DNA of 57,674 nucleotides from Gammaproteobacteria bacterium SCGC AG-212-F23 (GTDB taxonomy: Bacteria > Pseudomonadota > Gammaproteobacteria > DSM-16500), in contig LSTE01000001.1 of assembly GCA_001644445.1 (NCBI GenBank), positions 1-57,674 on the forward strand, given 5' to 3'. The notes beneath the pieces were generated by a model. The model did not search any database. It was not told where the DNA came from and was given only the letters and a program-made list of their open reading frames with translations. Position numbers and translations under genes: made by a program. The number at the start of each line of letters is the position of its first letter. Within the stretch, counting starts at the first letter, position 1. Shown here in pieces: positions 8,329-53,355 of the stretch.

Positions 8329-9405
8329 GTGACTAAACAGCGCATCTATTTAGTGCTGGCGGTTGGGGTTCTTGCTGTAATAATACGTTTATTAGTTTTT
8401 GTTTTTATGCCTGTTGTTCATGATACAGCAGGTGTGAAATATCTCGTTTCACCTGGTATGACTTTTCAAACGGTTGTTACTGATCTAAATCAACAAAAAA
8501 TTATTACCCATCCTTTTTTATTTGAATCTCTCATTGTGTTACGTGGCGCAACCCATCGTTTAAAAAAAGGCGAATATCTATTCCGTCAAGGTTCTACTCC
8601 TTTAACAATGATTAATCAAATGATGACAGGTACAGGTTTGGTGCAATATGAGTTTACACTGGTTGCGGGATGGAATATCACACAAGTAAAAAATGCGTTA
8701 GCAAAAGAAAGTGTTTTACGTCACTCAATAGAACACATGAGTGACAAAGAAGTAATGGATAAATTAGAATTACCGAACGATTTTTCCCCCTTTGAAAAAG
8801 AGGGGTCCATGGAGGGAATGTTTTTTCCAGAAACATATTTTTATACTAGAGGTTCGTCAGATATAGGATTGCTAAAACGCGCATTGCGTTTGATGAAGAA
8901 TAAATTAGATAAAGCATGGATTAACAGAGATGTCGACCTTCCTTTTGAAACACCATACCAAGTATTAATTGTCGCATCACTAGTTGAAAAGGAAACGGCG
9001 GTACCCGCTGAGCGCGCTATTATTGCGGGTGTTATTATCAATCGTCTTAAGCATAATATGTTATTACAAATTGATCCTACTGTGATTTATGGGTTAGGAT
9101 CGCGTTATACTGGCAAGATTCGTAAAGAAAATTTGCAAGATAAGAGCCCTTATAATACTTATCTTAACAAAGGGTTGCCTCCTTCGCCGATCGCAATGCC
9201 TAGCATGGAAGCGTTACTTGCTGTTTTACATCCGCAACACAATGATTACTTTTATTACGTTGCAAAAGGTGATGGGACACATATTTTTTCAAAATCTTTA
9301 GTTGAACATCGTGCTGCGATACAAGAGGTCAAAAAAACAGTAGGGCGTCGTCCCGCGGCTTGTCCGCGGGATCCAGCTTGTTTATCAGTAAAGGATAAGC
9401 TATGA
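8329..9405 (+). CDS. mltG: Endolytic murein transglycosylase MltG (YceG family), with a repeat-derived C-terminal tail
   Basis: GTG start and an N-terminal TM helix. YceG motifs are VEKET, QIDPTVIYG and YNTYLNKGLPPSPIAMP. The last ~20 codons run through repeat module A (see findings). Confidence 0.88.
   Translation: MTKQRIYLVLAVGVLAVIIRLLVFVFMPVVHDTAGVKYLVSPGMTFQTVVTDLNQQKIITHPFLFESLIVLRGATHRLKKGEYLFRQGSTPLTMINQMMTGTGLVQYEFTLVAGWNITQVKNALAKESVLRHSIEHMSDKEVMDKLELPNDFSPFEKEGSMEGMFFPETYFYTRGSSDIGLLKRALRLMKNKLDKAWINRDVDLPFETPYQVLIVASLVEKETAVPAERAIIAGVIINRLKHNMLLQIDPTVIYGLGSRYTGKIRKENLQDKSPYNTYLNKGLPPSPIAMPSMEALLAVLHPQHNDYFYYVAKGDGTHIFSKSLVEHRAAIQEVKKTVGRRPAACPRDPACLSVKDKL
9346..9376. repeat. Module A palindromic end (CGTCGTCCCGCGGCTTGTCCGCGGGATCCAG), solo copy inside the mltG 3' end
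   Basis: Exact 31-nt match to copies at 13780, 40714, 44472, 47457 and 48060. It has an internal 7-bp stem, CCCGCGG-cttgt-CCGCGGG. Confidence 0.95.
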
Positions 9406-10025
9406 ATTTTATCACCATCGAAGGCATCGAAGGCGTAGGCAAAACCACTGCCATGAAATTCGCAGAATCTTTTTTCCAAACCCATAAAAAAGACTTTATT
9501 CTCACTCGTGAACCTGGCGGTACAGCCATCGCGGAACAAATTCGCCAAATTCTTTTGACACCAGAAACAACAGTAGAAGCAATCACTGCCAATACAGAAC
9601 TATTGTTAATGTTTGCTGCGCGTGCTCAACATATTCAATATGTGATTAAACCTGCTTTGCAAACAGGGAAATGGGTCATTAGTGATCGTTATGTTGATGC
9701 GAGTTTTGCCTATCAAGGCGGTGGTCGTGGTATTTCCGAAAACACCATTGCATTTTTAGAAGAATGGATTGTCGCAGACATTTTACCGGTTGCGACGATT
9801 ATATTAGATGCCCCAGCTGAAATTGGTTTAGCAAGGGCGAAAAATAGAAGCGCTCACGATAGAATAGAACAAGAGAAGGTTGATTTTTTTGTAAGAGTGC
9901 GCGAAGCTTATCTAATGCATGCTCGTAAAAACCCGCATCGTTACTATATCATTGATGCAACAAAACCTTTAGAGAGCGTAGAGCAGGCGCTAATCCAAGT
10001 ATTTACCAAGGTAGTATTGAAATGA
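9402..10025 (+). CDS. tmk: Thymidylate kinase
   Basis: P-loop IEGIEGVGKTT, REPGGT and DRY. Its start overlaps the mltG stop (ATGA). Confidence 0.93.
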   Translation: MNFITIEGIEGVGKTTAMKFAESFFQTHKKDFILTREPGGTAIAEQIRQILLTPETTVEAITANTELLLMFAARAQHIQYVIKPALQTGKWVISDRYVDASFAYQGGGRGISENTIAFLEEWIVADILPVATIILDAPAEIGLARAKNRSAHDRIEQEKVDFFVRVREAYLMHARKNPHRYYIIDATKPLESVEQALIQVFTKVVLK

Positions 10026-10942
10026 TTTATCCATGGCAGCAATCACAGTGGCAACAATTTAATGATATGCAAAAAAATCGCATACCACATGCGTTGTTAT
10101 TGCTAGGTAAGCCAGGCTTAGGTAAAAAATCATTTGCTGAAATGATGGCAAAAACACTTTTATGTGAACAAGCTAATGACGTTGCTTGTGATCATTGCCA
10201 TTCATGCTCTTTATTTCAAGCGAATACACATCCTGATTTTAAAAGTATTTCGCCAGAAGAATCTGCATCTATGATTAAGATTGATCAGATTCGTGATGTT
10301 ACACATTTTGTTTATGAAACCGCACAACAGAGCAAAAATCGTGTTGTCGTGATTGATCCTGCTACACGTATGAATATACAGTCCATGAATGCCTTGTTAA
10401 AAACCTTAGAAGAACCAGCACCACATGTTGTTATTATTTTAACAGCAGAGCAGTCACTACGGTTGCCAGCAACGATCACTAGTCGCTGCCAAAAAATTAT
10501 TTTTCATGCACCTGCCGAAAAAGTAGCATTAGCATGGTCAGAAGATTTAACAGTAGAAGCCCTAGAGTTAGCAGAAGGCGCACCTTTAAAAGCACTAGCA
10601 ATGATCAAGGAAAATCAATTAACGGTAAAAAAAGAGTTATATCAAGGATTAATAGATTTAGCTCAAGATAAAGCAGATCCTTTACAACTTGCATTGAAAT
10701 ACCAAGAAATGGATCTACGCTTTATACTAGATCTATTATTCATTTGGGTAAAAGGATTGTTGCGTGCTCAGTTGCAGGCGGTACACGAATTTCCATTTAA
10801 AAAATTGAAAAGCAGTCAATTGGTTGAATACAGTCATTATATTCAAAAAATATATGAATATGTTTTTGCATCTGTTAACTTAAATAAACAATTATTACTA
10901 GAAGACTTATTTATACGGTGGAAACAATATGTATCTGGTTGA
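10022..10942 (+). CDS. holB: DNA polymerase III delta' subunit
   Basis: Contains GKPGLGKKSFA, the Zn module CDHCHSCSLF, TLEEP and SRCQ. It follows tmk, as in E. coli. Confidence 0.85.
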   Translation: MIYPWQQSQWQQFNDMQKNRIPHALLLLGKPGLGKKSFAEMMAKTLLCEQANDVACDHCHSCSLFQANTHPDFKSISPEESASMIKIDQIRDVTHFVYETAQQSKNRVVVIDPATRMNIQSMNALLKTLEEPAPHVVIILTAEQSLRLPATITSRCQKIIFHAPAEKVALAWSEDLTVEALELAEGAPLKALAMIKENQLTVKKELYQGLIDLAQDKADPLQLALKYQEMDLRFILDLLFIWVKGLLRAQLQAVHEFPFKKLKSSQLVEYSHYIQKIYEYVFASVNLNKQLLLEDLFIRWKQYVSG

Positions 10943-11690
10943 TTCGCATTGTCATATTGATCAAATTGATATACCTGATCTTTTGTCGCAAGCAAAAGAG
11001 GCGGGCGTAGGTCATATGTTATGTGTGTGTATTACATTGACTGATTTTCCTAAGATGTTAAGCATGGTGCAGCCGTATTCGTATATTAGTGCATCGGTGG
11101 GTTTGCATCCTAATGAAACTGTAGAGCAAGAACCCACTGCAAAAGAACTAATTGTTTTGGCACAACCAGAAAAAGTTGTTGCCATCGGCGAAACAGGGCT
11201 AGATTATTACCGAACGACAGGTGATGTGAAATTTCAACAAGAACGGTTTCGTCAACACATTCATGCTGCGCGAACAGTAAAAAAACCTTTAATTATCCAT
11301 ACGCGTCAAGCTCGTGAAGATACCATGGCTATCTTGCGTGCAGAAAAAGCCAATGAAGTTAGTGGTGTGATGCATTGTTTTACCGAAGATTGGGCGATGG
11401 CAAAAGCTGCATTAGATTTAGGATTTTATATTTCATTTTCTGGTATTATTACTTTTAAAAATGCAGTAGAAATTCAAGAGGTAGCTAAACAAGTTCCTCT
11501 GGATAGAATGCTAATTGAAACAGATTCGCCTTATCTTGCGCCCAATCCCTATCGTGGCAAAACGAATCAGCCTGCTTATGTGCGTTATGTTGCTGAATAT
11601 ATTGCATCTTTACGTGGTATTAGTTTAGAAAAAGTAGCGGAACACACGACTAATAATTTTTTTAATTTATTCAAGGGAGCGAAAAAATAA
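10929..11690 (+). CDS. ycfH: TatD-family metal-dependent hydrolase/DNase
   Basis: Contains DSHCHID, GETGLDY, IHTR and ETDSPYLAP. It follows holB, as in E. coli. Confidence 0.88.
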   Translation: MYLVDSHCHIDQIDIPDLLSQAKEAGVGHMLCVCITLTDFPKMLSMVQPYSYISASVGLHPNETVEQEPTAKELIVLAQPEKVVAIGETGLDYYRTTGDVKFQQERFRQHIHAARTVKKPLIIHTRQAREDTMAILRAEKANEVSGVMHCFTEDWAMAKAALDLGFYISFSGIITFKNAVEIQEVAKQVPLDRMLIETDSPYLAPNPYRGKTNQPAYVRYVAEYIASLRGISLEKVAEHTTNNFFNLFKGAKK

Positions 11691-12941
11691 ATGTTTCGTC
11701 CATTATCTATTTTTATGGGATTACGTTATTTGCGTGCTAAACGTCGAAATCATTTTATTTCTTTTATTTCGATGACGTCGATGATTGGTATCGCTTTAGG
11801 TGTCTTAGTTTTGATTACAGTGTTGTCTGTGATGAATGGCTTTGATCGGGAAATCAAAACACGTGTTTTTAGCGTGATTCCTGCATTAACGGTGACAGGT
11901 ATCGATGGTAAGATGCAAAATTGGCAATCACTGGAAAAAACGCTATCAGAAAATCAAACAATCACATCTATTGCACCCTTTGTCAGTGGGCAAGCATTGC
12001 TTGCGAATGCTAATTTTGTTCATCCAGTTTCAGTCGTTGGTATTTTACCTCAGCAAGAAAAAAAAATGTCTGAGTTAAACGCAAAAATGATTGAAGGTAG
12101 TTTGGATGCATTATTGCCAGGAAAATTCGGTATAGCGCTTGGTGAAGATTTAGCGAGTCAGTTAGCTGTAGGTGTTGGTGACAAGATTGCCGTGTTTACT
12201 TCACAGTTTTCCGTTTCTATTGCAGGCATTATTCCACGTATTAAATTGTTTACCGTTGTTGGAATTTTTAGAACGAATGCCGGGTTTCATGTTGACTCGG
12301 ATTTGGCTTTTATTCAATTGCAAGATGCCCAGCGATTATTTCAAATGGAAAACAATGTGACAGGGTTGCATATTAATATTCACAACATCTATCAGGCACC
12401 TATATTTGAAAATGAGTTGATTCGCGCATTGCCGCCAGCCATTCGTGTTTCTAATTGGACTGACCAAGTAGGAACGTATTTTCAAGCGGTGAATATGGAA
12501 AAACATATGATGTTTTTGATTTTAATGTTAATCATTATCGTTGCTGTGTTTAATCTAGTAAGTACATTGGTCATGGTTGTTAATGAAAAAGAAGCAGACA
12601 TTGCTATTTTAAGAACATTTGGCGCGACTCCGCGTATGATATTAATGACGTTTATTTTTCAGGGCGGGGTGATTGGTGTGATTGGCACGCTCCTGGGCGT
12701 GATAGGTGGTGTAGCTTTGGCATTGCATGTCACCGAGGTTGTCAATTGGCTGCAAGCAGTGTTACACGTACAGTTTTTATCTTCTAGCGTTTATATCCTA
12801 GATTATTTGCCTTCTGAATTATTGTGGTCTGATGTGTTGGTCATCGTAAGCTGTGCACTTTTATTTAGTTTATTAGCAACGCTTTATCCTGCATTCAGGG
12901 CATCGAAAACGGAACCAGTGGAGGCGTTGCGTTATGAATAA
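11691..12941 (+). CDS. lolC: Lipoprotein-release ABC permease (LolC/LolE family; only one permease gene is present, possibly LolF-type)
   Basis: 416 aa. It has an N-terminal TM, a large periplasmic domain and a C-terminal FtsX-type 3-TM bundle. It overlaps lolD. Confidence 0.85.
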   Translation: MFRPLSIFMGLRYLRAKRRNHFISFISMTSMIGIALGVLVLITVLSVMNGFDREIKTRVFSVIPALTVTGIDGKMQNWQSLEKTLSENQTITSIAPFVSGQALLANANFVHPVSVVGILPQQEKKMSELNAKMIEGSLDALLPGKFGIALGEDLASQLAVGVGDKIAVFTSQFSVSIAGIIPRIKLFTVVGIFRTNAGFHVDSDLAFIQLQDAQRLFQMENNVTGLHINIHNIYQAPIFENELIRALPPAIRVSNWTDQVGTYFQAVNMEKHMMFLILMLIIIVAVFNLVSTLVMVVNEKEADIAILRTFGATPRMILMTFIFQGGVIGVIGTLLGVIGGVALALHVTEVVNWLQAVLHVQFLSSSVYILDYLPSELLWSDVLVIVSCALLFSLLATLYPAFRASKTEPVEALRYE

Positions 12942-13620
12942 TATTTTAGAATGTGTTGGTTTATCGAAAAGTTATGCTGAAAATTCTTCTAAGATTGATA
13001 TTCTGCAGCAAATCAATTTTTCAGTAAAATCTGCTGAACTTGTTGCGATTGTTGGGGTATCTGGTTCTGGCAAAAGTACTTTTTTACACCTTTTAGGTGG
13101 CTTGGATAAACCTACATCGGGTAAAGTTACATTATTAGGCTATGATTTGGCAACGTTGTCTGAAAATATGAAATGTGAATTACGTAATAAACATTTAGGA
13201 TTTGTTTATCAATTCCATCATTTATTACCTGAGTTTACCGCCTTAGAAAATGTTTCTATGCCTTTGCTTATTCGTGGTAATATTGCAACGAATGTGATTC
13301 GAGAAAAAGCCAGTCACATATTAGAAAAAGTGGGGTTAAAAGATCGTATGCAACATAAAAGCGGTGAACTTTCCGGTGGCGAACGTCAACGAGTAGCTAT
13401 TGCTCGTGCTTTGGTAGCTAACCCAGATTGTATTTTAGCAGATGAACCTACTGGTAACTTAGATCCAAGAAACGCCGAAAAAGTATTAGAATTATTTTTT
13501 GATTTACAAAAAACCTTCCAAACCAGTGTTGTTATGGTCACTCACGATGCCCAAATTGCTAAACGTGCGCAAAGAATTTTGATGATTGAAGAGGGTAGAT
13601 TGATAGAATCTGGGCATTAA
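12934..13620 (+). CDS. lolD: Lipoprotein-release ABC ATPase
   Basis: Walker A GVSGSGKST, signature LSGGERQRVAIARAL and Walker B ILADEPTGNLD. Confidence 0.9.
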   Translation: MNNILECVGLSKSYAENSSKIDILQQINFSVKSAELVAIVGVSGSGKSTFLHLLGGLDKPTSGKVTLLGYDLATLSENMKCELRNKHLGFVYQFHHLLPEFTALENVSMPLLIRGNIATNVIREKASHILEKVGLKDRMQHKSGELSGGERQRVAIARALVANPDCILADEPTGNLDPRNAEKVLELFFDLQKTFQTSVVMVTHDAQIAKRAQRILMIEEGRLIESGH

Positions 13621-13623
13621 TTT

Positions 13624-13954
13624 CCCCTCACCCCAACCCTCTCCCGCTATAGAGTTCATTTTTTTGCAATACTCATAGCGGCGGGAGAGGGAGCTTTATG
13701 TATCGTTCTAAATTTCCCTTCAATTCCCGCTCTAGAGTTCATTTTTATGCAATACTCATAGCGGATTGCTCTAAATAAACGTCGTCCCGCGGCTTGTCCG
13801 CGGGATCCAGAGAATACTCGTCATCCCCGCATGCTTTAGCGGGGATCTCCTCCTCTACTAGCTAGAAAAGAACAATCAAATAGAGCTCCCTCTCCCGCCG
13901 CTATGAGTGTTGCAAAAAAATGAACTCAATAGCGGGAGAGGGTTGGGGTGAGGG
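13624..13954. repeat. Composite nested repeat: module D arms flanking a partial D copy, a module A end and a module B hairpin
   Basis: The D left arm (13624..13695) and D right arm (13884..13954) are reverse complements at 69/71 nt. Between them lie a partial D (13714..13764), A (13780..13810) and B (13819..13850, CGTCATCCCCGCATGCTTTAGCGGGGATCTCC). Confidence 0.92.
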
Positions 13955-13978
13955 TAAACCAATAAAAGGAAAAAATAC

Positions 13979-16279
13979 ATGAAAATATTAATTTTATTAT
14001 TTCTAACCGGCATTATATGCCTACAATTTTTTTCATACATACCATCATTAAAAGGCATAATTTTCTTATTAATTATTTTTTTACTTCTAAAATATTTCAC
14101 AACAAAATTCCCACAAACATTAAAAATTATTATCGCAACTTTAATGGGTTTCACCTGGGTCTTATACTTCTCCTTATCGCATCTTTCCTGGTCAGTTCCA
14201 AGCGATCAAGAAGGAAAAACCATCCTCATCACCGGGCAAATCACATCCATCCCCAACACAGAAAACCATACAACCAGTTTTCTATTCCAACTAAAAACAT
14301 TTAACAATAAACCCACCAACGCTTTAATAAAACTGAGCTGGCGTAATTCACTAGAACATTTGCATGCAGGTGAACAATGGCAACTCTACGTACGCCTAAA
14401 AAAAATCCATAGTTTAATGAATCCAGGCGGTTTCGATTATGAAACCTACGCATTTCAACAAGGCATACGCGCAACCGGCTACGTTGTTACAAAAAATATA
14501 GAAAATAAACGAATAACTAATCATTGGTACCATCAACCATTAAATCGGGTCCGCCAATCGTTAAAAGAAAAAATAGAAAATAATGTTCCGCTTAGTAATA
14601 CTTCACCATGGCTAGTTGCTTTAGCTTTAGGCGAAAGACATGGCATTGCTCCCGAAAATTGGCAAGTATTAAGAAATACAGGCACTAATCATTTGATGGC
14701 AATTGCCGGCTTGCATATTGGTTTTATGTCAGGATTTATTTTTGCTTTAGTCAGTTGGTGTTGGCGTCGTATTCCTGCGTGTGCATTAGTATTGCCGGCA
14801 CAGCATGCGGGTGCAATTGCAGCATTAATGATGGCCTTGATTTACAGTATGCTCGCGGGATTTTCTATTCCCACGCAACGTGCATGCATTATGTTAATGA
14901 CTTTTTTGTTATGGGTGTTATCCAATAAAAAAATAATTGCATGGCAAGCATGGTTTACTGCATTGCTTTGTGTTTTATTATTCAATCCACTTAGCACACT
15001 TGATGCTAGTTTTTGGTTGTCATTCGGTTCAGTCGCATTAATTATTTATGGAGTAAGCGCAAGAGTCGCAGCAAAAGGTTTGTGGTGGAAATTGGGTAGA
15101 ATCCAATGGGTTATCGCAATAGGATTAATTCCACTCAGTATTTGGTTGTTTCAACAGTGCTCAATCGTTTCATTTGTTGCTAATAGTATTGCTATTCCTT
15201 GTGTTGGTTTTATTATCGTGCCTCTTTGTTTATTAGGTTGTTTTTTTCTAATGATTTCAGGAAAGATTGGCGGATTGATTTTATTGCTAGACGATAAAAT
15301 ATTAGCGTTGCTTTGGAAAGTGCTTGCTTACCTTTCACAGTTATCTTGGAGTTCTTGGTATCAAGTTGTGCCAGAGCATTGGATTTTATGTAGCGCTTGT
15401 GTGGGTGTTTTTCTTTTATTGTTGCCAGCGGGTATGCCGGGAAGATGGTTAGGTATTATTTGGATGTTGCCTATGTTTTTATATAAACCAACAATACCTA
15501 AAGAGGGCGAAGCGTGGTTTACATTGTTAGATGTAGGGCAGGGGTTAGCTAGTGTTGTAGAAACACGTAAGCATATTTTAGTTTTTGATACAGGTGCGCG
15601 TTTAAGTGATAGTTATGATATGGGTGCCAATGTCGTCGTGCCATTTTTGCGTACCATCGCTGCGAAAAAAATAGATATGTTAGTGATTAGCCACGGTGAT
15701 AATGATCATATCGGCGGTGCAAAAGCTGTGTTGACTGCATTACCTGTCTCTGCTGTTAAAACCAGTGTTCCAGAAATGTTGCCAACACATAATACTAGTT
15801 ATTGTTTGCGTGGTGAATCTTGGCGTTGGGATGGTGTAGAATTTTCATTTCTTTCTCCTGTTAAAGAAACCTTGAATCAAGGAAATGATAGCTCTTGTGT
15901 ATTACGTATTCGTGCTGCAAATAAAACAGTATTATTTACAGGTGATATTGAAAAATCAGCAGAAAAATTTTTAGTGGAAAATGAAAAAGCTAATTTAAGT
16001 GCTGATATTTTAGTAGCCCCCCATCATGGCAGCAAAACCTCCGGCCTAAAAGAATTCGTCGTAGCTGTTCATCCTAAAATAGTGTTACTCCCTCTAGGCT
16101 ATCGCAACCGTTACCATTTTCCCCATCCACAAATTCTCGCGCAATATGCAAATTTAGGCGCAATTTTTTATGACAGTGTCACAGCAGGTGCAATCACCTA
16201 CAAAATAAATTCTCAAGGGTTGATTTCTTCACCAGAACTTTATCGTAAAGAAAATAAAAAATTTTGGCATAATGATTAA
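13979..16279 (+). CDS. comEC: DNA internalisation competence protein ComEC/Rec2
   Basis: 766 aa. It has a polytopic ComEC membrane core and a C-terminal metallo-beta-lactamase domain (ISHGDNDHIGG, APHHGS). Confidence 0.88.
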   Translation: MKILILLFLTGIICLQFFSYIPSLKGIIFLLIIFLLLKYFTTKFPQTLKIIIATLMGFTWVLYFSLSHLSWSVPSDQEGKTILITGQITSIPNTENHTTSFLFQLKTFNNKPTNALIKLSWRNSLEHLHAGEQWQLYVRLKKIHSLMNPGGFDYETYAFQQGIRATGYVVTKNIENKRITNHWYHQPLNRVRQSLKEKIENNVPLSNTSPWLVALALGERHGIAPENWQVLRNTGTNHLMAIAGLHIGFMSGFIFALVSWCWRRIPACALVLPAQHAGAIAALMMALIYSMLAGFSIPTQRACIMLMTFLLWVLSNKKIIAWQAWFTALLCVLLFNPLSTLDASFWLSFGSVALIIYGVSARVAAKGLWWKLGRIQWVIAIGLIPLSIWLFQQCSIVSFVANSIAIPCVGFIIVPLCLLGCFFLMISGKIGGLILLLDDKILALLWKVLAYLSQLSWSSWYQVVPEHWILCSACVGVFLLLLPAGMPGRWLGIIWMLPMFLYKPTIPKEGEAWFTLLDVGQGLASVVETRKHILVFDTGARLSDSYDMGANVVVPFLRTIAAKKIDMLVISHGDNDHIGGAKAVLTALPVSAVKTSVPEMLPTHNTSYCLRGESWRWDGVEFSFLSPVKETLNQGNDSSCVLRIRAANKTVLFTGDIEKSAEKFLVENEKANLSADILVAPHHGSKTSGLKEFVVAVHPKIVLLPLGYRNRYHFPHPQILAQYANLGAIFYDSVTAGAITYKINSQGLISSPELYRKENKKFWHND

Positions 16280-16345
16280 AAATTTATATTGAAAACACAT
16301 ATTGCTTAATCATGTTATTCTGATAGAGATATTGAATAAATATGA

Positions 16346-16616
16346 GATGATTGCGATACACTCAGGCCGTAGGCCTGGTAGCTCCACTAGCCTAGGGCAA
16401 GTGCACGCTCTTTGTGCGCGCCGCCCTAGGTAAGAGGCTTTCCTATGTGATGTTTGCGCTGTAAGCGCATTCTCTAGAAAATGATTGGTAGCTATTGCGC
16501 TTACAGCGCAAGCAATTTAGAGAGGATCATTGTTACCTAGGGCGGCGCGTGAAGAGCACGCTTGCCCTAGGCTAGTGGAGCTACCAGGCCTACGGCCTGA
16601 GTGCATCACAATTATC
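16346..16616. repeat. Module E: ~270-bp long imperfect palindrome
   Basis: The outer arms CTCAGGCCGTAGGCCTGGTAGCTCCACTAGCCTAGGGCAAG (from 16361) and their reverse complement (ending 16603) match perfectly over 41 bp. The inner pair is TGCGCTGTAAGCGCA / TGCGCTTACAGCGCA. It lies between convergent comEC and the J-domain gene. Confidence 0.92.
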
Positions 16617-16646
16617 TAGAGTAATCCAATGTTGATTGGGTTATTT

Positions 16647-17825
16647 TTAATGAGTTTTTTTAATTTTCAACGCCTCATTCGCCAAATTAAGCAGCGTCAT
16701 CTGTTCGCCCGCAAGCACTGGGTCAATTGTACCTGCTGCCACTTTATCAGGATGCCAGAAGAGAGAGAGTTCTATATAAGATGCCCTGATGGCAGCTTTT
16801 TGCTCTTTTGGAGATTTATTGTTATGTATTATTGGGTTAATTTTTAATATTTTAAAAGCAATAGTACGGCATTTGTCTATTTGATCATTGGTTCTTGCTT
16901 TGAATGGATTTTCGGCGAAAGGATCCTTCAGTTGACACTGACTGCTCAATGTATCTTTTTCTTTGTCTGATAATAGGACTATTGTTGGCATCGGTTTATA
17001 AAAACGATTATGAACATGTTTTCCAACCAAAGAACCTCCACAAAATGCCAAATCACCCACTAATTTTTTCAAAAATATTTCTGACTTAGGATAAGAAAAT
17101 GGTGTTTGTGGTGATCGTCTAGCTTTGATGAAATCAAAAATATAATCAGATAAACCTTGCAATAAGGTTCCGCCAATATAACAAGCGACAAGAGCACCAT
17201 TAGATTCCGACATATAGTCAATCGCAATTCCTAACCCTAAACCTGTTAACCAATAAGCTTGTTTTGATGGATTTCGCATTGTTGCATTAACAGCAACTTT
17301 GCTCAGTGATTGTGTTAATAGCCCGCTAAATATATGAGAATAGCTAGTATTATATTCTTCACCATAATAACAACCTGCAAAAAATAAAATACTTAACGCA
17401 TATTCAGCATGATCTAATCTAATGGTTGAGAGAATTTCAGGTGCTAATTCGTTAATAGCATGAATGAAATTAGAAGGATGCTCAAAATAATGGGTTTGTT
17501 TAAACGCTGACAATGCAGAATAAAATAAGTTAGCAATAAATTCACGTGTTTTACATATGCGCTGACTTCGAGTGACTTCACGTTTTAAAAGAGCGAATAT
17601 CTTATAGGTTTGTGATGTAATAACTGTTTCTAATCGGATGATTTCTTCCATTCGATTTAATAATTGTAAAGATAATATGCCATCAGATGAGCTGTTCAAT
17701 AAATCATACATAGATTGTATATGGGTAGGGTAGTCTTTAACCCTAGGAAGAATACTTATAATCTTTCTGCCAACACTAGTTTTATACTCTGAAAGTATTT
17801 TTAAGGCTTGTTTTTTTGTAAGCAT
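16647..17825 (-). CDS. Membrane-associated protein with a C-terminal DjlA-like J domain
   Basis: 392 aa. The extreme C-terminus, ...AAIRASYIELSLFWHPDKVAAGTIDPVLAGEQMTLLNLANEALKIKK, carries the HPD tripeptide and helix pattern of a J domain. Hydrophobic Gly-rich segments (AYWLTGLGLGIAIDYM, GALVACYIGGTLLQGL) lie mid-protein. The N-terminal 300 aa resemble nothing I recognise. Confidence 0.65.
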   Translation of the reverse strand: MLTKKQALKILSEYKTSVGRKIISILPRVKDYPTHIQSMYDLLNSSSDGILSLQLLNRMEEIIRLETVITSQTYKIFALLKREVTRSQRICKTREFIANLFYSALSAFKQTHYFEHPSNFIHAINELAPEILSTIRLDHAEYALSILFFAGCYYGEEYNTSYSHIFSGLLTQSLSKVAVNATMRNPSKQAYWLTGLGLGIAIDYMSESNGALVACYIGGTLLQGLSDYIFDFIKARRSPQTPFSYPKSEIFLKKLVGDLAFCGGSLVGKHVHNRFYKPMPTIVLLSDKEKDTLSSQCQLKDPFAENPFKARTNDQIDKCRTIAFKILKINPIIHNNKSPKEQKAAIRASYIELSLFWHPDKVAAGTIDPVLAGEQMTLLNLANEALKIKKTH

Positions 17826-25463: not shown

Positions 25464-25474
25464 AAAAAATTTTG

Positions 25475-25710
25475 CCCCTCACCCCAACCCTCTCCCGCTG
25501 TGGGGTTCATTTTATTTCATGATAGCTAGCGGCGGGAGAGGGAGGATTGCTCGTGTACGTTAATTCTCCTGCTCTTGGGTTCATTTTATTTTATAATAGC
25601 TAGCGGCGGGAGAGGGAGGATTGCTCGTGTACATTAACTCTCCCTCTCCCGCCGCTGTGACGGTGAAAAATAAGATACCTTTCTAGCGGGAGAGGGTCGG
25701 GGTGAGGGGG
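25475..25710. repeat. Module D composite with an internal 61-bp unit duplicated at a 74-bp period
   Basis: The left end CCCCTCACCCCAACCCTCTCCCGC (25475) is matched by the right end GCGGGAGAGGGTCGGGGTGAGGGGG (to 25710). The units at 25503..25563 and 25577..25637 are near-identical direct copies. Confidence 0.9.
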
Positions 25711-25713: not shown

Positions 25714-26058
25714 CTATTCTTTATTTAATAAAACCAACTCACGATTCAACGAATAATTCAGCACCGTACGGATAACCACTATAATTGCCAATAGTCCCAC
25801 CGCATAATAATCCGGCGTAGTCGTAGTTCCAATTAAATCCGCAGCAACAATAAATTCCAATCCTAGGATTAAGGTACGACCCAAATTCATTCGTATGAGA
25901 TTAATTGCTTGATTATCAGTAGACGCTTGCCCTGAAAAAATATAATAAAAATACTTTCCCAGTGCAGATAATACACCCGTGAGAATGACAACAATTGCCA
26001 AAATAGAAATAAAGCGCTGAATGAAGACTAATCCTTCATGAATCAGTTGCCAATGCAT
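25714..26058 (-). CDS. DUF1622-like small membrane protein
   Basis: 114 aa with 3-4 TM segments. The motif RMNLGRTLILGLEFIVAADLI is typical of DUF1622. Confidence 0.7.
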   Translation of the reverse strand: MHWQLIHEGLVFIQRFISILAIVVILTGVLSALGKYFYYIFSGQASTDNQAINLIRMNLGRTLILGLEFIVAADLIGTTTTPDYYAVGLLAIIVVIRTVLNYSLNRELVLLNKE

Positions 26059-26407: not shown

Positions 26408-26440
26408 GGAGATCCCCGCTAAAAGCATGCGGGGATGACG
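26408..26440. repeat. Module B hairpin, inverted orientation
   Basis: GGAGATCCCCGCTAAAAGCATGCGGGGATGACG is the reverse complement of the 13819..13850 copy, apart from a 1-nt loop difference. Confidence 0.9.
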
Positions 26441-32240: not shown

Positions 32241-32311
32241 TTCACAATTGAATAACTGAAAACTGGCTGAAAGCCTGATAGCTTTAGAATATAGAGTGAT
32301 AAATTTAGAGT

Positions 32312-44471: not shown

Positions 44472-44546
44472 CGTCGTCCCGCGGCTTGTCCGCGGGATCC
44501 AGAGGATAACTTATTCTGGTTCCCGTGAACAAGTCACGGGACGACG
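44472..44546. mobile_element. Module A, complete 75-bp unit (best-defined copy)
   Basis: Left end CGTCGTCCCGCGGCTTGTCCGCGGGATCCAG, a 13-nt spacer and right end CTGGTTCCCGTGAACAAGTCACGGGACGACG. It lies between the convergent hemF and 145-aa ORF stops. Confidence 0.9.
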
Positions 44547-44554
44547 CCTGAATG

Positions 44555-46991: not shown

Positions 46992-47002
46992 GGATTATTA
47001 AT

Positions 47003-47419: not shown

Positions 47420-47456
47420 CCGCTTTGCGTTGTTGTATAATTTCTCTGATGATACA

Positions 47457-47592
47457 CGTCGTCCCGCGGCTTGTCCGCGGGATCCAGTGTCATCCCGAGG
47501 TGTGTTTTTCACACCGAGGGATCTCCTGCTTACAGGGAGATCACACGCGTAGCTCGGGATGACACGAGTGCGCACTGGATCCCGCGACGACG
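47457..47592. mobile_element. Nested element: module C inserted inside module A, with a truncated A right end
   Basis: A left end at 47457..47487. Module C at 47487..47565 is bounded by GTGTCATCCCGAG / CTCGGGATGACAC, with internal hairpins at 47499..47515 and 47520..47542. The A right end at 47575..47592 lacks 12 nt of the hairpin. Confidence 0.9.
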
Positions 47593-47607
47593 TATATTAT
47601 TGAGTTT

Positions 47608-47877: not shown

Positions 47878-48033
47878 TTTGTTCCTGAAAAATTGGGATT
47901 CCAAGGACGTAATTTCCCAACATAATTATGATTTTCTATCAACATGTTGCTATAGAAAGTAATACGTTTCTGTATATCATATGGCCACCATAGATTAGAT
48001 AGTGAGCATTGTAAAAGATTGCTAGTAAAAATG

Positions 48034-48816
48034 CTACTTGAATTTATATCCTCGCAAGGCGTCGTCCCGCGGCTTGTCCGCGGGATCCAGTATTTTAGTT
48101 GATGCAGATACTGTTGTTATGTTTGTATTTATCGGTTGATACAACGTAGCTGTAGTTGCTGTGAGAGGCCTAGATGAAACTACTGCTGTGTTTGGCGAAG
48201 AATTACTAGTTGCTGCTTTTGTCCCTGCATTTTGTACATAATGATTTTTAAGATTGATAATATGATTTCGTGTATTTAAAGCGAGAGCATCAAATTGTAT
48301 AGCTGAGATTCCTCGTGACATCATGCCGTGCAAGTTGTCAAAATATTGATTAAAACAATCAAGTGCGAGATCGGTAGTCATCCATTTTCTCTTTACCCAT
48401 TCGGTGACACATTGATTTCGCTTTTTGTATGCATCTATGTATTCATTGGGTGACAAAAAATGAAATGTTTTAAAATATACATGACATTGAGTGTCATATA
48501 AATGTAAGAGAAGAGGTGCTACTATAAATTGTTTTTTTTGCAAATACTTGTTAAGACTATCTTCATAAGATTTAAATGTTACTTCATTTGGGAAATTTGT
48601 AGCACAACTCATTGTTTGTAGAAATTCGGGTATATATTTATCACGCATGGTGTTGGCAAATTCTTTCATGTCATCTGTATCTATTGCCGCTAATGCTTTG
48701 AAATATGCTGTATGTATTGTGTTAAACCAATTAATAAGTAATCCTTCAATATTAGTATTATTATGTATAGAGGTTTGAATAGTGCGAATTGAAGGTATCG
48801 ATCGCGAAAATGACAT
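48034..48816 (-). CDS. Orphan protein with an S/T-rich tail and a repeat-derived C-terminus
   Basis: 260-aa ORF. The last 19 aa (..ILDPADKPRDDALRGYKFK) are read through module A at 48060..48090. Confidence 0.6.
   Translation of the reverse strand: MSFSRSIPSIRTIQTSIHNNTNIEGLLINWFNTIHTAYFKALAAIDTDDMKEFANTMRDKYIPEFLQTMSCATNFPNEVTFKSYEDSLNKYLQKKQFIVAPLLLHLYDTQCHVYFKTFHFLSPNEYIDAYKKRNQCVTEWVKRKWMTTDLALDCFNQYFDNLHGMMSRGISAIQFDALALNTRNHIINLKNHYVQNAGTKAATSNSSPNTAVVSSRPLTATTATLYQPINTNITTVSASTKILDPADKPRDDALRGYKFK
48060..48090. repeat. Module A end, solo copy inside a CDS
   Basis: Exact 31-nt match to the other A ends. Confidence 0.95.
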
Positions 48817-48948
48817 AAAATTTCCTCGTTTTATTGGTATCGGTATTATTTTATATCTTAATCTCTATTTTGTCATTATGTAATGAAAAAATATTTTGGC
48901 ATAAATAATACTCATTTGGATTACGAGAAATCTCGTCAGCGCATAAAT

Positions 48949-49611
48949 CTAAACAAAATCTAAATTTATCGTTGGCACTGCGTGATAAACGCCTGGTTGT
49001 TGTAATAGTTTCATCACTTCTGTTGGCGCAGGTTCCGTCAATAGCGGAATTGTGCCTTCATTATTCAATACTTTTGTTAATAATTTTCCATCTAATCCAT
49101 AAGCCTCATTGGTATGTACAGTGACTGCAAAAAAACCTTGTTCGCTACTATCAGCTGGACCAAATTGATGGTAAATCGTACCGTTAAAGCGTAGTGCAAA
49201 CATGCAGTCTGCCGCAATATTTACCGTATACATTTTATCGATGAAATGTTGTGGACGTTGTTTTACTTCTTCAGGAGTTGCTAAACTAAAACGTATAATA
49301 GAACCCTTAGAACCCGTAATTCCAATAATCACTCTATGCCCAACATGTCTGTGAAACAATACATCTCTGTGATCAACTCCGAAAGTATAAATAGCGGTTG
49401 GGTCATCTTTAGCAAAATTGGTTTTGCCAATGAGTGCACTTTGTTCGCAATATTCTTCAACATAATTGCTATGTGTCGCTTGTTTGATAAATGCGGCATC
49501 AACAAATGTTTTTCCTGTGCCTTTGGGAAACTTACCAACGATAGTAATTTCAATTGGCAAACGCTCATCAAAGGTAGGGATGTGGACATGGTTTTTTACT
49601 GAATTATTCAT
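48949..49611 (-). CDS. Hypothetical protein, possibly cupin-like
   Basis: Start MNNSVKNH at 49611 after GGAGG. The His-rich motif FHRHVGHRV ... YHQFGP suggests a metal site. It is divergent from a LysR gene. Confidence 0.55.
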   Translation of the reverse strand: MNNSVKNHVHIPTFDERLPIEITIVGKFPKGTGKTFVDAAFIKQATHSNYVEEYCEQSALIGKTNFAKDDPTAIYTFGVDHRDVLFHRHVGHRVIIGITGSKGSIIRFSLATPEEVKQRPQHFIDKMYTVNIAADCMFALRFNGTIYHQFGPADSSEQGFFAVTVHTNEAYGLDGKLLTKVLNNEGTIPLLTEPAPTEVMKLLQQPGVYHAVPTINLDFV

Positions 49612-49712
49612 TTTATAGCCTCCAAAATAGGTTAATGAAAGCATTGTAAAATCGTTCTCATTAGAATACAATATAGCTATTAACTAACATAGTGTTTATA
49701 TATGGAAACAAT

Positions 49713-50603
49713 ATGCAACAAACTCTGACGCAAATCGCCATTTTTTATCATGTAGTTGATTTAATGAGCTTTTCTAAGGCAGCCAAACGTCTTGGTATGT
49801 CTAAAGGTTTTGTGAGTAAACAGATTAGCCAATTAGAAAATGATATGCGTAGCAAATTATTAGAGCGTAATACTCGGCATTTGAAATTAACTTTTGCGGG
49901 TGAAGAGCTTTTTAAACATAGCCGTAATATTATTTTGGAATATGATCATGCCACTCAAACACTTACTTCATTACAAAATAATCCTGCTGGGTTATTACGC
50001 GTGACAGCACCTCCTGCGTATGCTGCACATATGCTGGCAAAACACTTACCGAATTTTTTAAAAAAATATCCTGAAATACGACTGGATCTTAACTTAACTG
50101 GTGAACAACTTAATTTATTGGAATTTAAAATTGATGTTGCTATTCGCTTGACCCATACGCCGCCTGCTGATCGCATTGCTAAATTACTTGGGCATTATCA
50201 ATTACAAGTCTGCGCTTCGAGTCACTATTTAAAACAATACCCCAATCTTAAACATCCACAGCAATTAGTAGAGCATCCTTGTTTAGTTTATTCAACAGAA
50301 AAAGTCAGCGAACGTTGGCCTTTTATTATTGATGGTGAGCGCACTCATGTTTATGTTAAACCACGTTTAGCATGCAATACATACGAATCGATTTTACAAG
50401 GTGTTTTAAATCATTGCGGTATTGCGAGATTGCCATCATACGTTCTTGTAGAAGAACTAAAGAAAAAAAATATTCAATTATTATTTAACGAATATCTCCC
50501 GCCCGTTATTCCAGTGTATGCCATCTATGCACAAAACCAAAAAATTTCCCCTGCGGTGCGGGTTTTTATTGAGTTCCTGCAATCGATCGCAATTGATGTT
50601 TAA
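49713..50603 (+). CDS. LysR-family transcriptional regulator
   Basis: wHTH LMSFSKAAKRLGMSKGFVSKQISQLE plus a LysR substrate-binding domain. Start taken at MQQTLTQ (49713). Confidence 0.9.
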   Translation: MQQTLTQIAIFYHVVDLMSFSKAAKRLGMSKGFVSKQISQLENDMRSKLLERNTRHLKLTFAGEELFKHSRNIILEYDHATQTLTSLQNNPAGLLRVTAPPAYAAHMLAKHLPNFLKKYPEIRLDLNLTGEQLNLLEFKIDVAIRLTHTPPADRIAKLLGHYQLQVCASSHYLKQYPNLKHPQQLVEHPCLVYSTEKVSERWPFIIDGERTHVYVKPRLACNTYESILQGVLNHCGIARLPSYVLVEELKKKNIQLLFNEYLPPVIPVYAIYAQNQKISPAVRVFIEFLQSIAIDV

Positions 50604-50615
50604 CCTAAGATTTTA

Positions 50616-50700
50616 CAGACCGAAGGTCTGAAGATTTAGCCTGGGGTTAACAACGCGTTTTTTGCGTGGCAATAATGCCATATCTTTTTAAGCGCTGTAA
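50616..50700. repeat. Module E, half copy
   Basis: CAGACCGAAGGTCTG hairpin, then TAGCCTGGGGTTAACAACGCGTTTTTTGCGTGG, then AGCGCTGTAA. It parallels the left arm of the 16346 and 32312 copies. Confidence 0.7.
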
Positions 50701-50735
50701 ACTTCTCAATTCTAGTTTCAGTTGGATTACTAATA

Positions 50736-52016
50736 TTACCGTGGACTTTTTCCCTGACGAGGTTGGTCTTTAGTGGCTTGGGGTTTATCTATTGTTTTTT
50801 CGTATTGAGGTTGCTTAGTTTGTCTATGAGCAGGTGGGTATAAGCTGCAGCGTGATAAATAGTGCGTTGTGTAAGTAAAAAAATCCGGAAAAAACATTTG
50901 TAATACGGGTTTAGGAAATTGAGCGATAAAAGTGGCCATTTCAGCGAGCTTGTGGTTTTCGTCTTGTTCTGCATAAGGACCATGTTTTGCTTGCATGGCT
51001 TGTTGAAATTGGTGAAAATCATTAAACAATGCTTCTATCCTTCCTTTTGCCGAATGAATATTTTTAGTATGGTGATAACAAATGGAATTTCCTTGAATTT
51101 TTCCGTGCCAAGTAAGTTGGCCAATGGGATAGTTGGGGCCTGGTTCTAAATAATCCCCATCACGTTGTAAAACATTTTTTTCTATAAGATAATGGATTCC
51201 TTTTTCACCACCGAATACGGATAAATCATTACAAAACGTTTGTGGCTTATAATGTTTAGCAGCTGCTAAAAACTGAATAAGAAGATGATTTTCCTCTGTG
51301 GATAGTGAGCATGTTGTTCTTTTTTGCCATAATGCTTTTATTTCACTCATATATTTGCTACCAGTTTCAATAGCTTGTTGCATTTGTTTTTTTCGTTGAG
51401 GGTCAAGAGTGCCATCTTTTTTTAAAAAAGGAATCGCCATTGTTTTGTTACTAATAGGAGATATAATATGACATCGTTTGTGCGCCTTTACGATAAGATG
51501 ACTCATCAGTTCGTTGAACAACGCTTTTTTGTAAGCGTTTTTTGCTAAATGGGATTTGTAATCAAGATAAACTGTTTCTTCGTCTACAGAATAGCCACCC
51601 ATGGTTTCTTCGTTACGTGCTCTTCCTAAAACAATTTTTAGTGATCTATCTCTAATATCCTGCCATAGTTGTGCTCTTGGTAACCAAGAATCCTCGCTTA
51701 AAATTTCTGCAATAGCCTCATCACATAATTGTCTAGCTTCTTGGGCTTTTTCTGGCGTTAAACTTTCTTGTAAAGGAGACGAGAGGATTGTGACGCCGTG
51801 TTTTATTATTTCCGCTGGCACTGGGTTAATCGTAATGCCTCCTGAAGGTCTAACAACAAAATCAGGATATTGTAATTTGGCTAAACCCGCAGTAATTTCT
51901 GGATTTTCTGTAATTTGTTTAGCTTCTATCTTTTGTACTTCATGTAGAAGAAGTATCATTATTATAAAAGAAATATTTGACGAGCTTGCTGGCGAATTTC
52001 CTCGAGTTTTTGACAT
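50736..52016 (-). CDS. Large orphan protein
   Basis: 426-aa uninterrupted ORF. It has a hydrophobic patch near the N-terminus (ISFIIMILLL) and a basic/Gln/Pro-rich C-terminal tail. No recognisable motif. Confidence 0.65.
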   Translation of the reverse strand: MSKTRGNSPASSSNISFIIMILLLHEVQKIEAKQITENPEITAGLAKLQYPDFVVRPSGGITINPVPAEIIKHGVTILSSPLQESLTPEKAQEARQLCDEAIAEILSEDSWLPRAQLWQDIRDRSLKIVLGRARNEETMGGYSVDEETVYLDYKSHLAKNAYKKALFNELMSHLIVKAHKRCHIISPISNKTMAIPFLKKDGTLDPQRKKQMQQAIETGSKYMSEIKALWQKRTTCSLSTEENHLLIQFLAAAKHYKPQTFCNDLSVFGGEKGIHYLIEKNVLQRDGDYLEPGPNYPIGQLTWHGKIQGNSICYHHTKNIHSAKGRIEALFNDFHQFQQAMQAKHGPYAEQDENHKLAEMATFIAQFPKPVLQMFFPDFFTYTTHYLSRCSLYPPAHRQTKQPQYEKTIDKPQATKDQPRQGKSPR

Positions 52017-52246
52017 GTTTATTTCTCAAATTAATTTAATGCTAGTCATTATACATAAGCAAGGTGAAAAGGGAAAGAGGAGCCATCTATCCTTTTGTTT
52101 CTTTTCGTTTTTTTAAAAAGTGTGATCTAAGCAAACGTGATTAGCTTAGTGAGCTAAATCAAAAAAATTAATTTTATGTTTCTTGAAAAAGCTGCTACAA
52201 TTTATTTCATTGTATTATGCTATCATCAGAAATGAAAAGGATGTTT

Positions 52247-52702
52247 ATGATGAATACTTTCCTACGAAAAAATCTAGTGAAACTTTTATTGCTTGTCTTT
52301 AGCATATTATTACCAGGATATCTATTAGCTGCAGAAGACAATAATTATAGCTCTCAATTGATTAATCAGAGCAAACACGCAGTAGCAGGTGGGTACACTC
52401 TCATAAAGACCCGAGTTTGGCCTGAAACTGGATGTGTGATAGATAGCGGCAAAGATATTATTCCTCCTGGCGAAAGCACCCAACTTAAAATTGCAAAGAA
52501 AAAAGAATGTGACCAAGCCGGTATTGGCTATTCCCTATATGAATCATCTGATGTAAAAAATACGCACTTGCTTGGCTATGTTTCTCATCGCTTTCGTGAT
52601 GGTAAATTTAGTTTGCAAGTATCTATTTTTTGCGAGGATGATCAATGTATTTTTAGAGGCCTTAATCCACAACAAGTTACTGTTCAACAGGATCATCAAT
52701 GA
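52247..52702 (+). CDS. Secreted Cys-containing hypothetical protein
   Basis: Start MMNTFLRKNLVKLLLLVFSILLPGYLLAAE (AAGGA 5 nt upstream; the track start is 52217). It has a signal peptide and 4 Cys. It overlaps the next ORF (ATGA). Confidence 0.55.
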   Translation: MMNTFLRKNLVKLLLLVFSILLPGYLLAAEDNNYSSQLINQSKHAVAGGYTLIKTRVWPETGCVIDSGKDIIPPGESTQLKIAKKKECDQAGIGYSLYESSDVKNTHLLGYVSHRFRDGKFSLQVSIFCEDDQCIFRGLNPQQVTVQQDHQ

Positions 52703-53355
52703 GTATAAAAAACTATTTTTACATAATTAAATCACTATTTTTTATTTCGTTTATCATGCTGCTTGGCTTTTCAATTAATGCTTATGCTAAGAATAAAGAT
52801 TTTCATTCTTCTTGCTTCGATATTTCATTGGCTGATAATTTAAATCTTATTGAAAAAACAGAAGAAAAAAATAATGGCTTTTATCGTTATATTTTTTCCT
52901 CAGCAAACAATGAGAATGCTGCATTGCAAATGCGTGTCATTGTTTCCAACAAAAAACCAGAAGCAAATCAAAGTCTAGAAGATTTTCAGACAGCTGCCAT
53001 TGGAGCGATGACTAGTATGTTTATGGACTCCTATAAGCTGTATCAATATATCAACACACCAGAAAATAAAAAAGTTTTAAGTGAAAAACCTTATCAATTA
53101 AAGTTAGGCAACACATCGCTTACTGGAGCAACAATGTATTTTGGTAATATCGATGCATCGTTTTTGGTAACTCGTGCAAATAATATGACATATGCCTTTA
53201 CACTCGTGAGCAAAAATAACAATGCACAAATAAGAAAAAATAATTTAAAAGCGCTCACAGAACAGTTGCAGTCTATAAAATTTTACTCTTGTTTTGAGAT
53301 TCGTGTCATCCCGAGTGTTTTGAAAAATACTGGTTTAACCCATAGACTAAACTAG
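52699..53355 (+). CDS. Secreted hypothetical protein
   Basis: 218 aa with signal peptide ...LGFSINAYA. Its 3' end overlaps convergent ycaC by 50 nt. Confidence 0.55.
   Translation: MSIKNYFYIIKSLFFISFIMLLGFSINAYAKNKDFHSSCFDISLADNLNLIEKTEEKNNGFYRYIFSSANNENAALQMRVIVSNKKPEANQSLEDFQTAAIGAMTSMFMDSYKLYQYINTPENKKVLSEKPYQLKLGNTSLTGATMYFGNIDASFLVTRANNMTYAFTLVSKNNNAQIRKNNLKALTEQLQSIKFYSCFEIRVIPSVLKNTGLTHRLN
53303..53315. repeat. Module C terminal fragment (GTGTCATCCCGAG)
   Basis: Exact match to the module C left terminus at 47487..47499. It lies in the overlap of two convergent CDS ends. Confidence 0.6.

Follow-up and report, generated by a model that had tools for sequence, protein, structure and literature searches.

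Hairpin repeats in the gene spacers of a gammaproteobacterial contig: probable Ssn-related motifs, a repeat apparently associated with DUF559 endonucleases and a MITE-like palindrome

What are the palindromic repeats that occupy the gene spacers of contig LSTE01000001.1 from Gammaproteobacteria bacterium SCGC AG-212-F23, and how did they come to be there? The whole contig of 57,674 nucleotides (nt), referred to here as the window, comes from a core part of a gammaproteobacterial chromosome and has a G+C content of approximately 38%; it encodes the plsX-fab cluster, mltG, tmk, lolCDE, comEC, smc-zipA-ligA, lepA-lepB-rnc-era-recO, gltX and aconitase. In a search over 5.8 billion proteins the closest RecO was 59-61% identical to that of the window, and Rfam and tRNA scans of the window gave no matches. 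An original prediction, made from the letters alone, described five new interlocking families of GC-rich modules, A to E, resembling miniature transposable elements with inverted repeats (MITEs) and repetitive extragenic palindromes (REPs). All five families are present where they were predicted, far above chance, with a summed length of approximately 1.76 kb (1.8 kb had been claimed). They do lie past stop codons or between convergent genes, all 13 sites being 3' of the stop codon of at least one gene (six between convergent neighbours, seven between co-directional and none between divergent ones), and they are indeed nested, A and B within a D palindrome and C within an A doublet. What did not survive is their description as five new families: a single superfamily, already described, takes in A, B and probably C as its variants, D is unrelated to it and very widespread, and E is an orphan. 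It is probable, in our view, that the spacers hold three unrelated hairpin classes, namely Ssn-related motifs (SRM; A, its diverged partner A', B and probably C), a repeat linked to DUF559 endonucleases (D) and a lineage-restricted MITE-like palindrome (E).

Module A consists of a tag, an 8-bp stem, a 5-nt loop and a tail (CGTC-G-TCCCGCGG-CTTGT-CCGCGGGA-TCCAG), and seven exact 31-mers are found in the window against none expected (Table 1). The partner A' (40758-40788 and 44516-44546) is equally real and carries compensatory stem changes, but the copy listed at 47575 is an 18-nt remnant, CTGGATCCCGCGACGACG, from which the hairpin centre has been deleted. The copy at 9346 folds with an 8-bp stem and 5-nt loop at -11 kcal/mol (z -4.1), the doublet at 44472-44546 at -27 kcal/mol (z -6.9) and the triple hairpin at 40714-40820 at -54.8 kcal/mol (z -14.9). 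Module B was correctly placed in both orientations, although a mismatch search missed the inverted copy because of the extra T in its loop. Module C is likewise a 79-nt palindrome fitted exactly between A(+) and the truncated A(-), and its 13-nt end gives three matches where 0.01 are expected.

These modules have published relatives. Di Nocera, De Gregorio and Rocco, 2013 (PMC3733652) described CGTC-tagged REPs, with a CGTC tag, a stem of 8-9 bp, a loop of 4-5 nt, a CCA tail and head-to-head dimers, from Coxiella burnetii, Neisseria (dRS3) and Rickettsia (RPE-4/6); they found no associated enzyme and concluded that these REPs seem to have no transposase devoted to them. Module A has the tag (CGTC, or TGTC/CCTC, in that family), the 8-9 bp stem, the 4-5 nt loop and the tail near CCA, and the earlier comparison with REPs, bacterial interspersed mosaic elements (BIMEs) and RPEs was apt, Rickettsia RPE-4/6 and Neisseria dRS3 belonging to the same CGTC superfamily. 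More recently, Chenal et al., 2025 (Nat Commun, PMC11893778) showed that SsnA of N. meningitidis, a single-domain GIY-YIG protein of 94 amino acids (aa), binds the oriented hairpin CGTCATTCCCGCGMAVGCGGGAATCYRG only as single-stranded DNA (ssDNA), cuts a few nt upstream of it and reduces transformation by motif-bearing DNA. In the same study Ssn homologues across phyla had Ssn-related motifs on at least one side in 71% and on both sides in 42% of cases, and the motif-ssn-motif layout was likened to an insertion sequence (IS) or a domesticated REP-associated tyrosine transposase (RAYT). When the window was searched with the SRM pattern HGTCWYN(0-2)YYVSBRHN(0-5)WNVSBRGN(0-2)RNCYNB, B matched at two sites, and A and A' at eight further sites provided that G was allowed at position 5 (W); the shuffled window gave a mean of 0.05-0.07 matches. 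As judged from their sequences, A and B are members of the known CGTC-REP/SRM family, and C probably is.

The modules were predicted to be dispersed elements with consistent ends, and module A is by no means confined to the window. When one genome per species was scanned with its central 27-mer, at least 106 stretches had an exact match, and these came from the genomes of at least 25 species (Legionellales, Coxiellaceae and unclassified gammaproteobacterial metagenome-assembled genomes, MAGs). Its boundaries are sharp: position -1 is a C, and positions +1 to +3 read CAG. Among the 218 copies with up to five substitutions, 120 are exact; neighbouring copies are predominantly head-to-head dimers, as in CGTC REPs (69 +- pairs, against four -+, eight -- and one ++, with spacers of 7-49 nt). 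The hairpin itself is conserved: 60 variants contain 25 cells with compensatory changes, and the loop-closing pair has 13 compensatory changes and no broken one. One exact copy lies on NZ_DASWTE010000066.1 (locus L020), labelled as a Phenylobacterium MAG, the sole non-gammaproteobacterial label among the matches listed; mis-binning or transfer is possible.

The original prediction argued that the modules, having no transposase in the window, would be non-autonomous. There is indeed none in the window, but it overlooked a partner: the repeats enclose the gene for a small nuclease. When all open reading frames (ORFs) in loci around 162 copies of A were clustered, a single recurrent close neighbour emerged, a 96-aa protein with a GIY-YIG domain (PF01541, E 3e-16) that is encoded no more than 4 nt from an A copy. 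In the cassette, A(+) is separated from the ORF by approximately 20 nt that include a ribosome-binding site, and A(-) follows the stop codon. Nine loci hold intact, frameshifted, interrupted or truncated GIY-YIG copies between or beside A copies; the hairpin-ssn-hairpin arrangement is seen in L006, L068, L082, L107 (C. burnetii) and L111 and is decayed in L029, L032, L017, L026 and L066. The protein has more than 2,700 homologues. That of C. burnetii is encoded by a single-copy gene between dapB and gcvP, bracketed by the exact A 31-mer and its inverse within a longer inverted repeat. The Legionellales protein is 53% identical to the SsnA region of N. gonorrhoeae (E 6e-37), and its Y7, Y18 and E65 align with Y6, Y17 and E64 of SsnA, residues whose mutation abolishes cleavage by the N. 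meningitidis enzyme (PMC11893778).

This pairing extends well beyond the Legionellales. A tblastn search of PLSDB found homologues in Azospirillum, Sinorhizobium, Rhizobium, Shinella, Neorhizobium, Sphingobium, Novosphingobium, Neisseria, Aeromonas, Photobacterium, Planktothrix and Spirosoma, and 10 of 12 distant-homologue regions (alpha-, beta- and gamma-proteobacteria, cyanobacteria and Bacteroidota) had lineage-specific CGTC/TGTC hairpins near the gene; in Photobacterium and Rhizobium tumorigenes hairpin copies were found at a distance only. The hairpins beside these genes are of dRS3 type in Neisseria, B-like in Azospirillum and C-like in Spirosoma. Within the Legionellales and their relatives the A 31-mer is near-invariant across at least 25 species, whereas the associated protein varies from 63 to 97% identity, which points to selection through protein recognition, beyond recent spread alone. 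We do not regard the link between GIY-YIG proteins and CGTC REPs as new, as it is already contained in Chenal et al., 2025 (PMC11893778).

The ssn cassettes have further features of their own. In several (L006 5120-5160, L029, L032 6950-7010, L082 1-75 and L008 3560-3830) the 5' tag and approximately 13 nt of flank are tandemly repeated two to four times, for example GGGACGACGTAGTGGGAGCTAC|GGGACGACGTAGTG; these repeats coincide with the reported Ssn cut region and could be repair footprints. The ssn pseudogene in L029 (3100-3230, minus strand) is split by an AT-rich, near-perfect palindrome of approximately 130 nt with TATAG on both sides, which looks like a separate MITE insertion. In L111 (1238-1275 and 1961-2038) another small hairpin (CCCGGGCTTGATCCGGG) is inserted in the left A copy of the cassette, and a gene-less doublet nearby has a fully compensated stem variant, CCTGCGG/CCGCAGG. 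When compared with L107, C. burnetii AAYJ01000002 (L110, approximately 1875-3082) carries an IS110-family (IS1111-type) transposase that other strains lack; it is inserted not in module A but outside the cassette, approximately 50 nt past the outer inverted repeat. On a Planktothrix plasmid (L118, 601-885) an ssn homologue with TGTCATTCTGAG-type repeats lies in a defence island, between an MmeI-type restriction-modification gene and the DISARM gene drmA.

Based on these observations we propose the following model for modules A and B and, probably, C. Each A-type unit, with its unpaired 5' CGTC tag, 8-bp GC stem, short loop and 3' TCCAG tail, would be bound as ssDNA by its cognate GIY-YIG Ssn of approximately 96 aa and cut a few nt 5' of the tag, as has been shown for the Neisseria and Wolbachia enzymes. 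The gene-less hairpins of the window would be served by an Ssn encoded elsewhere in the genome, if present. Module A sites may be cut in their single-stranded state, as in DNA imported via the ComEC that the window encodes, and the likely consequence would be cleavage of motif-bearing ssDNA, in transforming DNA and perhaps in replication or repair intermediates; stable 3' hairpins in transcripts would be a side effect. Gene-less singlets and doublets may have arisen from, or been spread by, the ssn cassette, and an Ssn-dependent ssDNA route resembling that of IS200 and RAYTs is our leading candidate for the multiplication of the hairpins. Module D together with DUF559 is probably an analogous nuclease-repeat pair.

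Module D is present in the window as predicted, its 23-nt tag and stem being found there in six copies against none expected (13625, 13932(-), 25476, 25686(-), 33339(-) and 33431). They form three composite palindromes with inverted arms of 84, 47 and 67 nt, each unit being a hairpin CCCTCTCCCGC…GCGGGAGAGGG with a TTGGGGTGAGGG tail; in the second composite, 25491-25638 is a tandem duplication of a 74-nt D unit (loop, 3' stem and spacer) at 91% identity. D too is dispersed. A scan of metagenomes with GCGGGAGAGGGTYGGGGTGAGGG found it on at least 120 contigs, most of which belong to GC-rich bacteria of soil and water. The unit there is CCCTCTCCCGC-(2-6 nt)-GCGGGAGAGGG with T[TC]GGGGTGAGGG after it; the loop is AT-rich and approximately 35-40 nt long in the AT-rich contigs L147 and L153 and in the window. 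L147 has only modules D and C in common with the window, and therefore D and C are dispersed in another genome. E. coli has D-like units too: 2131 of its 5426 complete genomes contain them, in one to five places each, such as the wzc-wcaA and tauD-hemB spacers. Some strains carry a D-like doublet in the wzc-wcaA spacer (L284 1201-1286), and a single unit follows tauD in L285 (1201-1248).

Are these modules insertions, or are they structured spacers that were inherited in place? In the relatives L281, L282 and L283, whose RecO is 59-60% identical to that of the window, rnc-era-recO-pdxJ-gltX is a compact operon: the gap before recO measures 6 and 20 nt in those where recO comes after era, and recO and pdxJ overlap or stand 40 nt apart; in a fourth relative, L074, the era-recO gap is 17 nt and an A doublet lies further on. 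The era-recO spacer of the window is 317 nt long and holds the module E copy E2, and its recO-gltX spacer (33239-33519) is 281 nt long and holds the D pair, with pdxJ absent from this position. In L281-L283 pdxJ stands between recO and gltX, where the window has the D pair. The orthologous sites in these distant relatives are empty, and none of the refuting outcomes named in the original prediction (confinement to the window, inconsistent ends, identical orthologous loci) was seen; we therefore read E2 and D at these sites as insertions. Ancestral structured spacers or Rho-independent terminators, conserved in place, would account for stable hairpins that all lie 3' of genes, and E2 has T runs behind its inner hairpins, the sole terminator-like features among the modules. 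Yet A, B and D have no T run and are missing from the terminator-like list of a scan of the window; moreover, identical 31-mers stand at unrelated loci and in at least 25 species, orthologous spacers in the four relatives are 6-20 nt long or hold other content, and two A copies lie inside ORFs (mltG, 8329-9405, and ORF 48034-48816). We regard this explanation as scarcely credible, and continue with insertion.

The largest ORF cluster near D motifs consisted of ABC-ATPases, which were dismissed as ordinary abundant genes. The recurrent close neighbour is a DUF559 protein of approximately 110 aa (PF04480, E 1e-38). On D-motif contigs its gene has D-type units or doublets to either side, and lineage-specific variants of D were seen around DUF559 genes in three independent samples. 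A reverse test started from 36 DUF559 relatives taken from IMG/VR by protein pattern alone, and in 8 of the 14 closest a D-type unit lay within approximately 150 nt. In a motif-free test that compared the 300-nt upstream and downstream flanks, 17 of 33 DUF559 loci shared an exact word of at least 16 nt, where the shuffle maximum was 13; Ssn, as the positive control, gave 8 of 12 at 18 nt or more. The shared words are units of hairpin and tail whose sequence varies with the DUF559 lineage, which would imply specific recognition. A hairpin whose purine-rich tail mimics the 3' arm of the stem stands by DUF559 in L133, L185, L182, L245, L248, L249, L257 and L103 as well as in Azospirillum, Deinococcus, Neisseria and E. 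coli. A separate variant lies beside the gene in each of Azospirillum brasilense, Deinococcus, N. gonorrhoeae and the Legionellales MAG L103; in E. coli, two D-like hairpins lie downstream of the DUF559 gene.

The association between D and DUF559 is, at the level of sequence, well supported. From it we suggest, tentatively and with slightly less than even confidence, that D represents an apparently undescribed third nuclease-repeat partnership beside RAYT-REP and Ssn-SRM, in which small DUF559 endonucleases (Vsr-like, PD-(D/E)xK) would be bracketed by cognate repeats. Such a repeat has a stem such as CCCTCTCCC/GGGAGAGGG, then TT(A), then a near-copy of the 3' arm, for example GGGGTGAGGG, and gene-less D-type copies and doublets would be dispersed over genomes ranging from those of the Legionellales to those of E. 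coli, Neisseria, Azospirillum and Deinococcus. The novelty of the association is likely but unproven: DUF559 did not appear in titles or abstracts of the searchable literature, a search that did not cover full texts for repeats. The partner nucleases of A and D would then be encoded elsewhere in the genome and be Ssn GIY-YIG for A and, apparently, DUF559 for D, rather than an IS630/Tc1 or RAYT transposase.

A RAYT, that is, a Y1 tyrosine transposase encoded elsewhere and mobilising REP/REPIN elements, deserves consideration here, given that the head-to-head doublets resemble REPINs, that a single-copy gene flanked by repeats is the architecture typical of RAYTs (PMC3733652) and that module E contains GTAG strings. 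However, the tags of A to D are CGTC or CCCTCACCCC and not GTAG, the ORF census around the 162 A copies and the D copies returned GIY-YIG and DUF559 but no Y1 transposase, and CGTC REPs had already been judged to be without a dedicated transposase (PMC3733652). We consider mobilisation by a RAYT to be very improbable, and small nucleases remain the partners that we favour for A and D.

Module E stands apart. Two long palindromes (16336-16625 and 32299-32530), 82% alike and each with long inverted arms, and one short relative of approximately 70% (50610-50705) were found, as predicted; outside the window, neither the more than 280 fetched loci nor IMG/VR (searched by exact 30-mer) nor PLSDB (searched by blastn) contained a match to E. 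It is best described as a lineage-restricted, MITE-like long palindrome with no partner identified, for which an IS-derived MITE is the default reading. Could the same be said of all the modules, as classical IS-derived MITEs moved in trans by a transposase and leaving target-site duplications? The long terminal inverted arms of the D composites and of E, the nested insertions and the empty orthologous sites would fit, and for E, which has no identified partner, the idea is plausible. Against it, the window has no transposase and no matching IS was found; no consistent target-site duplication surrounds the A copies, and E is present in only three copies; the A unit is a 31-nt hairpin and not a pair of terminal inverted repeats; and the proteins encoded by the full-length versions, of 96-115 aa, are nucleases and not transposases. 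As an explanation of the modules as a whole we think it unlikely, and keep to the division into three classes. The modules nonetheless are what the original prediction called them, dispersed, structure-conserving, REP-like and non-autonomous within the window.

Several points weigh against the nuclease partnerships. In tblastn searches the 57.7-kb window has neither a GIY-YIG (ssn) gene nor a DUF559 gene, only the hairpins, and the cognate enzymes of this organism, represented here by a lone 57.7-kb contig, are ones that we infer. Module A carries G where the SRM search sequence requires A or T. Module C fails the SRM pattern, and its link to the family is its likeness to the hairpins beside the Spirosoma ssn homologue. 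For D, the link to DUF559 is an association in about half of the sampled loci.

Table 1. Repeat modules and composites in the 57,674-nt window
Feature	Coordinates	Strand	Position and remarks
Module A	9346..9376	+	Exact 31-mer; within last ~20 codons of mltG ORF, immediately ahead of tmk
D left arm: tag CCCTCACCCCAA and hairpin CCCTCTCCCGC…GCGGCGGGAGAGGG, AT-rich loop	13616..13699	+	Directly after lolD stop codon
Partial extra D hairpin (loop and half stems)	13725..13764	+	Inside D palindrome
Module A	13780..13810	+	Exact 31-mer; nested in D palindrome
Module B	13819..13850	+	Exact match to published SRM search sequence
D right arm	13880..13963	-	93% complementary to 13616-13699
E1 composite palindrome	16336..16625		57-nt arms, 95%; between convergent comEC and ORF 16647-17825
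D composite: tag and hairpin, tandem 74-nt duplication, inverted hairpin and tag	25467..25710		Between convergent ligA and ORF 25714-26058
Module B, inverted	26408..26440	-	Extra loop T
E2	32299..32530		Between era and recO; gap of 6-20 nt in relatives
D pair, tags inward	33285..33505		67-nt arms, 93%; between recO and gltX
Triple hairpin: A(+) 40714-40744, A'(-) 40758-40788, A(-) 40790-40820	40714..40820		10 nt past aconitase stop codon
Head-to-head A(+)/A'(-) doublet, 13-nt spacer	44472..44546		Between convergent genes
A(+) 47457-47487, module C palindrome 47487-47565, truncated A(-) 47575-47592	47457..47592		
Module A	48060..48090	+	Inside 3' end of minus-strand ORF 48034-48816
E3, short, diverged	50610..50705		Between convergent genes; weak fold, z -1.9
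Solo 13-nt module C end (GTGTCATCCCGAG)	53303..53315	+	Overlapping 3' ends of convergent ORFs

Two features of the neighbouring genes may be added. The last ~20 residues of MltG (…GRRPAACPRDPA…) and of the unassigned 260-aa protein encoded at 48034-48816 are specified by module A, and the match to the MltG family ends at residue 334-338 of 358, just ahead of the module A copy. The gene for the DNA uptake channel, comEC (13979-16279), has the D/A/B cluster upstream and E1 downstream; this is suggestive given the reported role of Ssn in transformation but may be coincidence.

If these readings are right, modules A to C would place a Legionellales-type genome, together with C. burnetii, in the Ssn/SRM system. 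A site of 31 nt that is invariant in at least 25 species, set against a nuclease that varies down to 63% identity, would make a clean case for the study of ssDNA recognition by Ssn, and it bears on whether Ssn restricts transformation in naturally competent Legionellales, the window itself encoding ComEC. The pairing of D with DUF559 is the part most worth following up. If true, it would provide a functional lead for a large domain of unknown function and for a GC-rich repeat that is seen even in E. coli, and a small nuclease with its own hairpin repeat would be a recurrent design, built on at least three nuclease folds.

How do the modules compare with known systems? The GC-rich repeats of E. 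coli, CCCTCGCCCC…GGGGAGAGGGTTAGGGTGAGGG, possibly those called boxC, share the design of D, with a stem CCCTCTCCC/GGGAGAGGG, a TTAGGGTGAGGG tail and occurrence as doublets; they differ in their loop, which is 3-6 nt long, as it is in GC-rich bacteria, in contrast to the approximately 35-40 nt of AT-rich loop in the window and L147. QMITE1 and QMITE2 of C. burnetii (Wachter et al., 2018, PMC5896051), from the same bacterial order, are likewise MITE- or REP-like and lie at the 3' ends of genes, some overlapping ORF ends, but QMITE2 carries a GTAG REP targeted by IS1111 (PMC5896051). With the CGTC REPs module A shares the tag, the 8-bp stem, the 5-nt loop, the CCA-type tail, head-to-head dimers, sites 3' of genes and occasional intragenic copies; module B has the tag and stem but differs in its 8-nt loop and CTCC tail. 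The Ssn/SRM system (NTS) shares with the present repeats a CGTC-tagged, oriented hairpin of approximately 30 nt in multiple intergenic copies, a hairpin-ssn-hairpin architecture (seen in relatives, not in the window) and a single-domain GIY-YIG protein of approximately 94-96 aa with conserved catalytic residues. Module B fits its published search sequence and module A differs from it by G at the W position; what sets the present branch apart is a 31-mer invariant across at least 25 species, a window without the gene and its being known from sequence alone, and the main text of PMC11893778 does not mention Legionella or Coxiella. Finally, REP/REPIN-RAYT systems and BIMEs of enterobacteria and pseudomonads also combine a single-copy, nuclease-type gene bracketed by its own hairpins with many gene-less singlets and inverted doublets, and there, too, repeat and protein lineages co-vary. 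They differ in the GTAG tag and in the enzyme, an HUH Y1 transposase in their case and a GIY-YIG or PD-(D/E)xK fold in ours.

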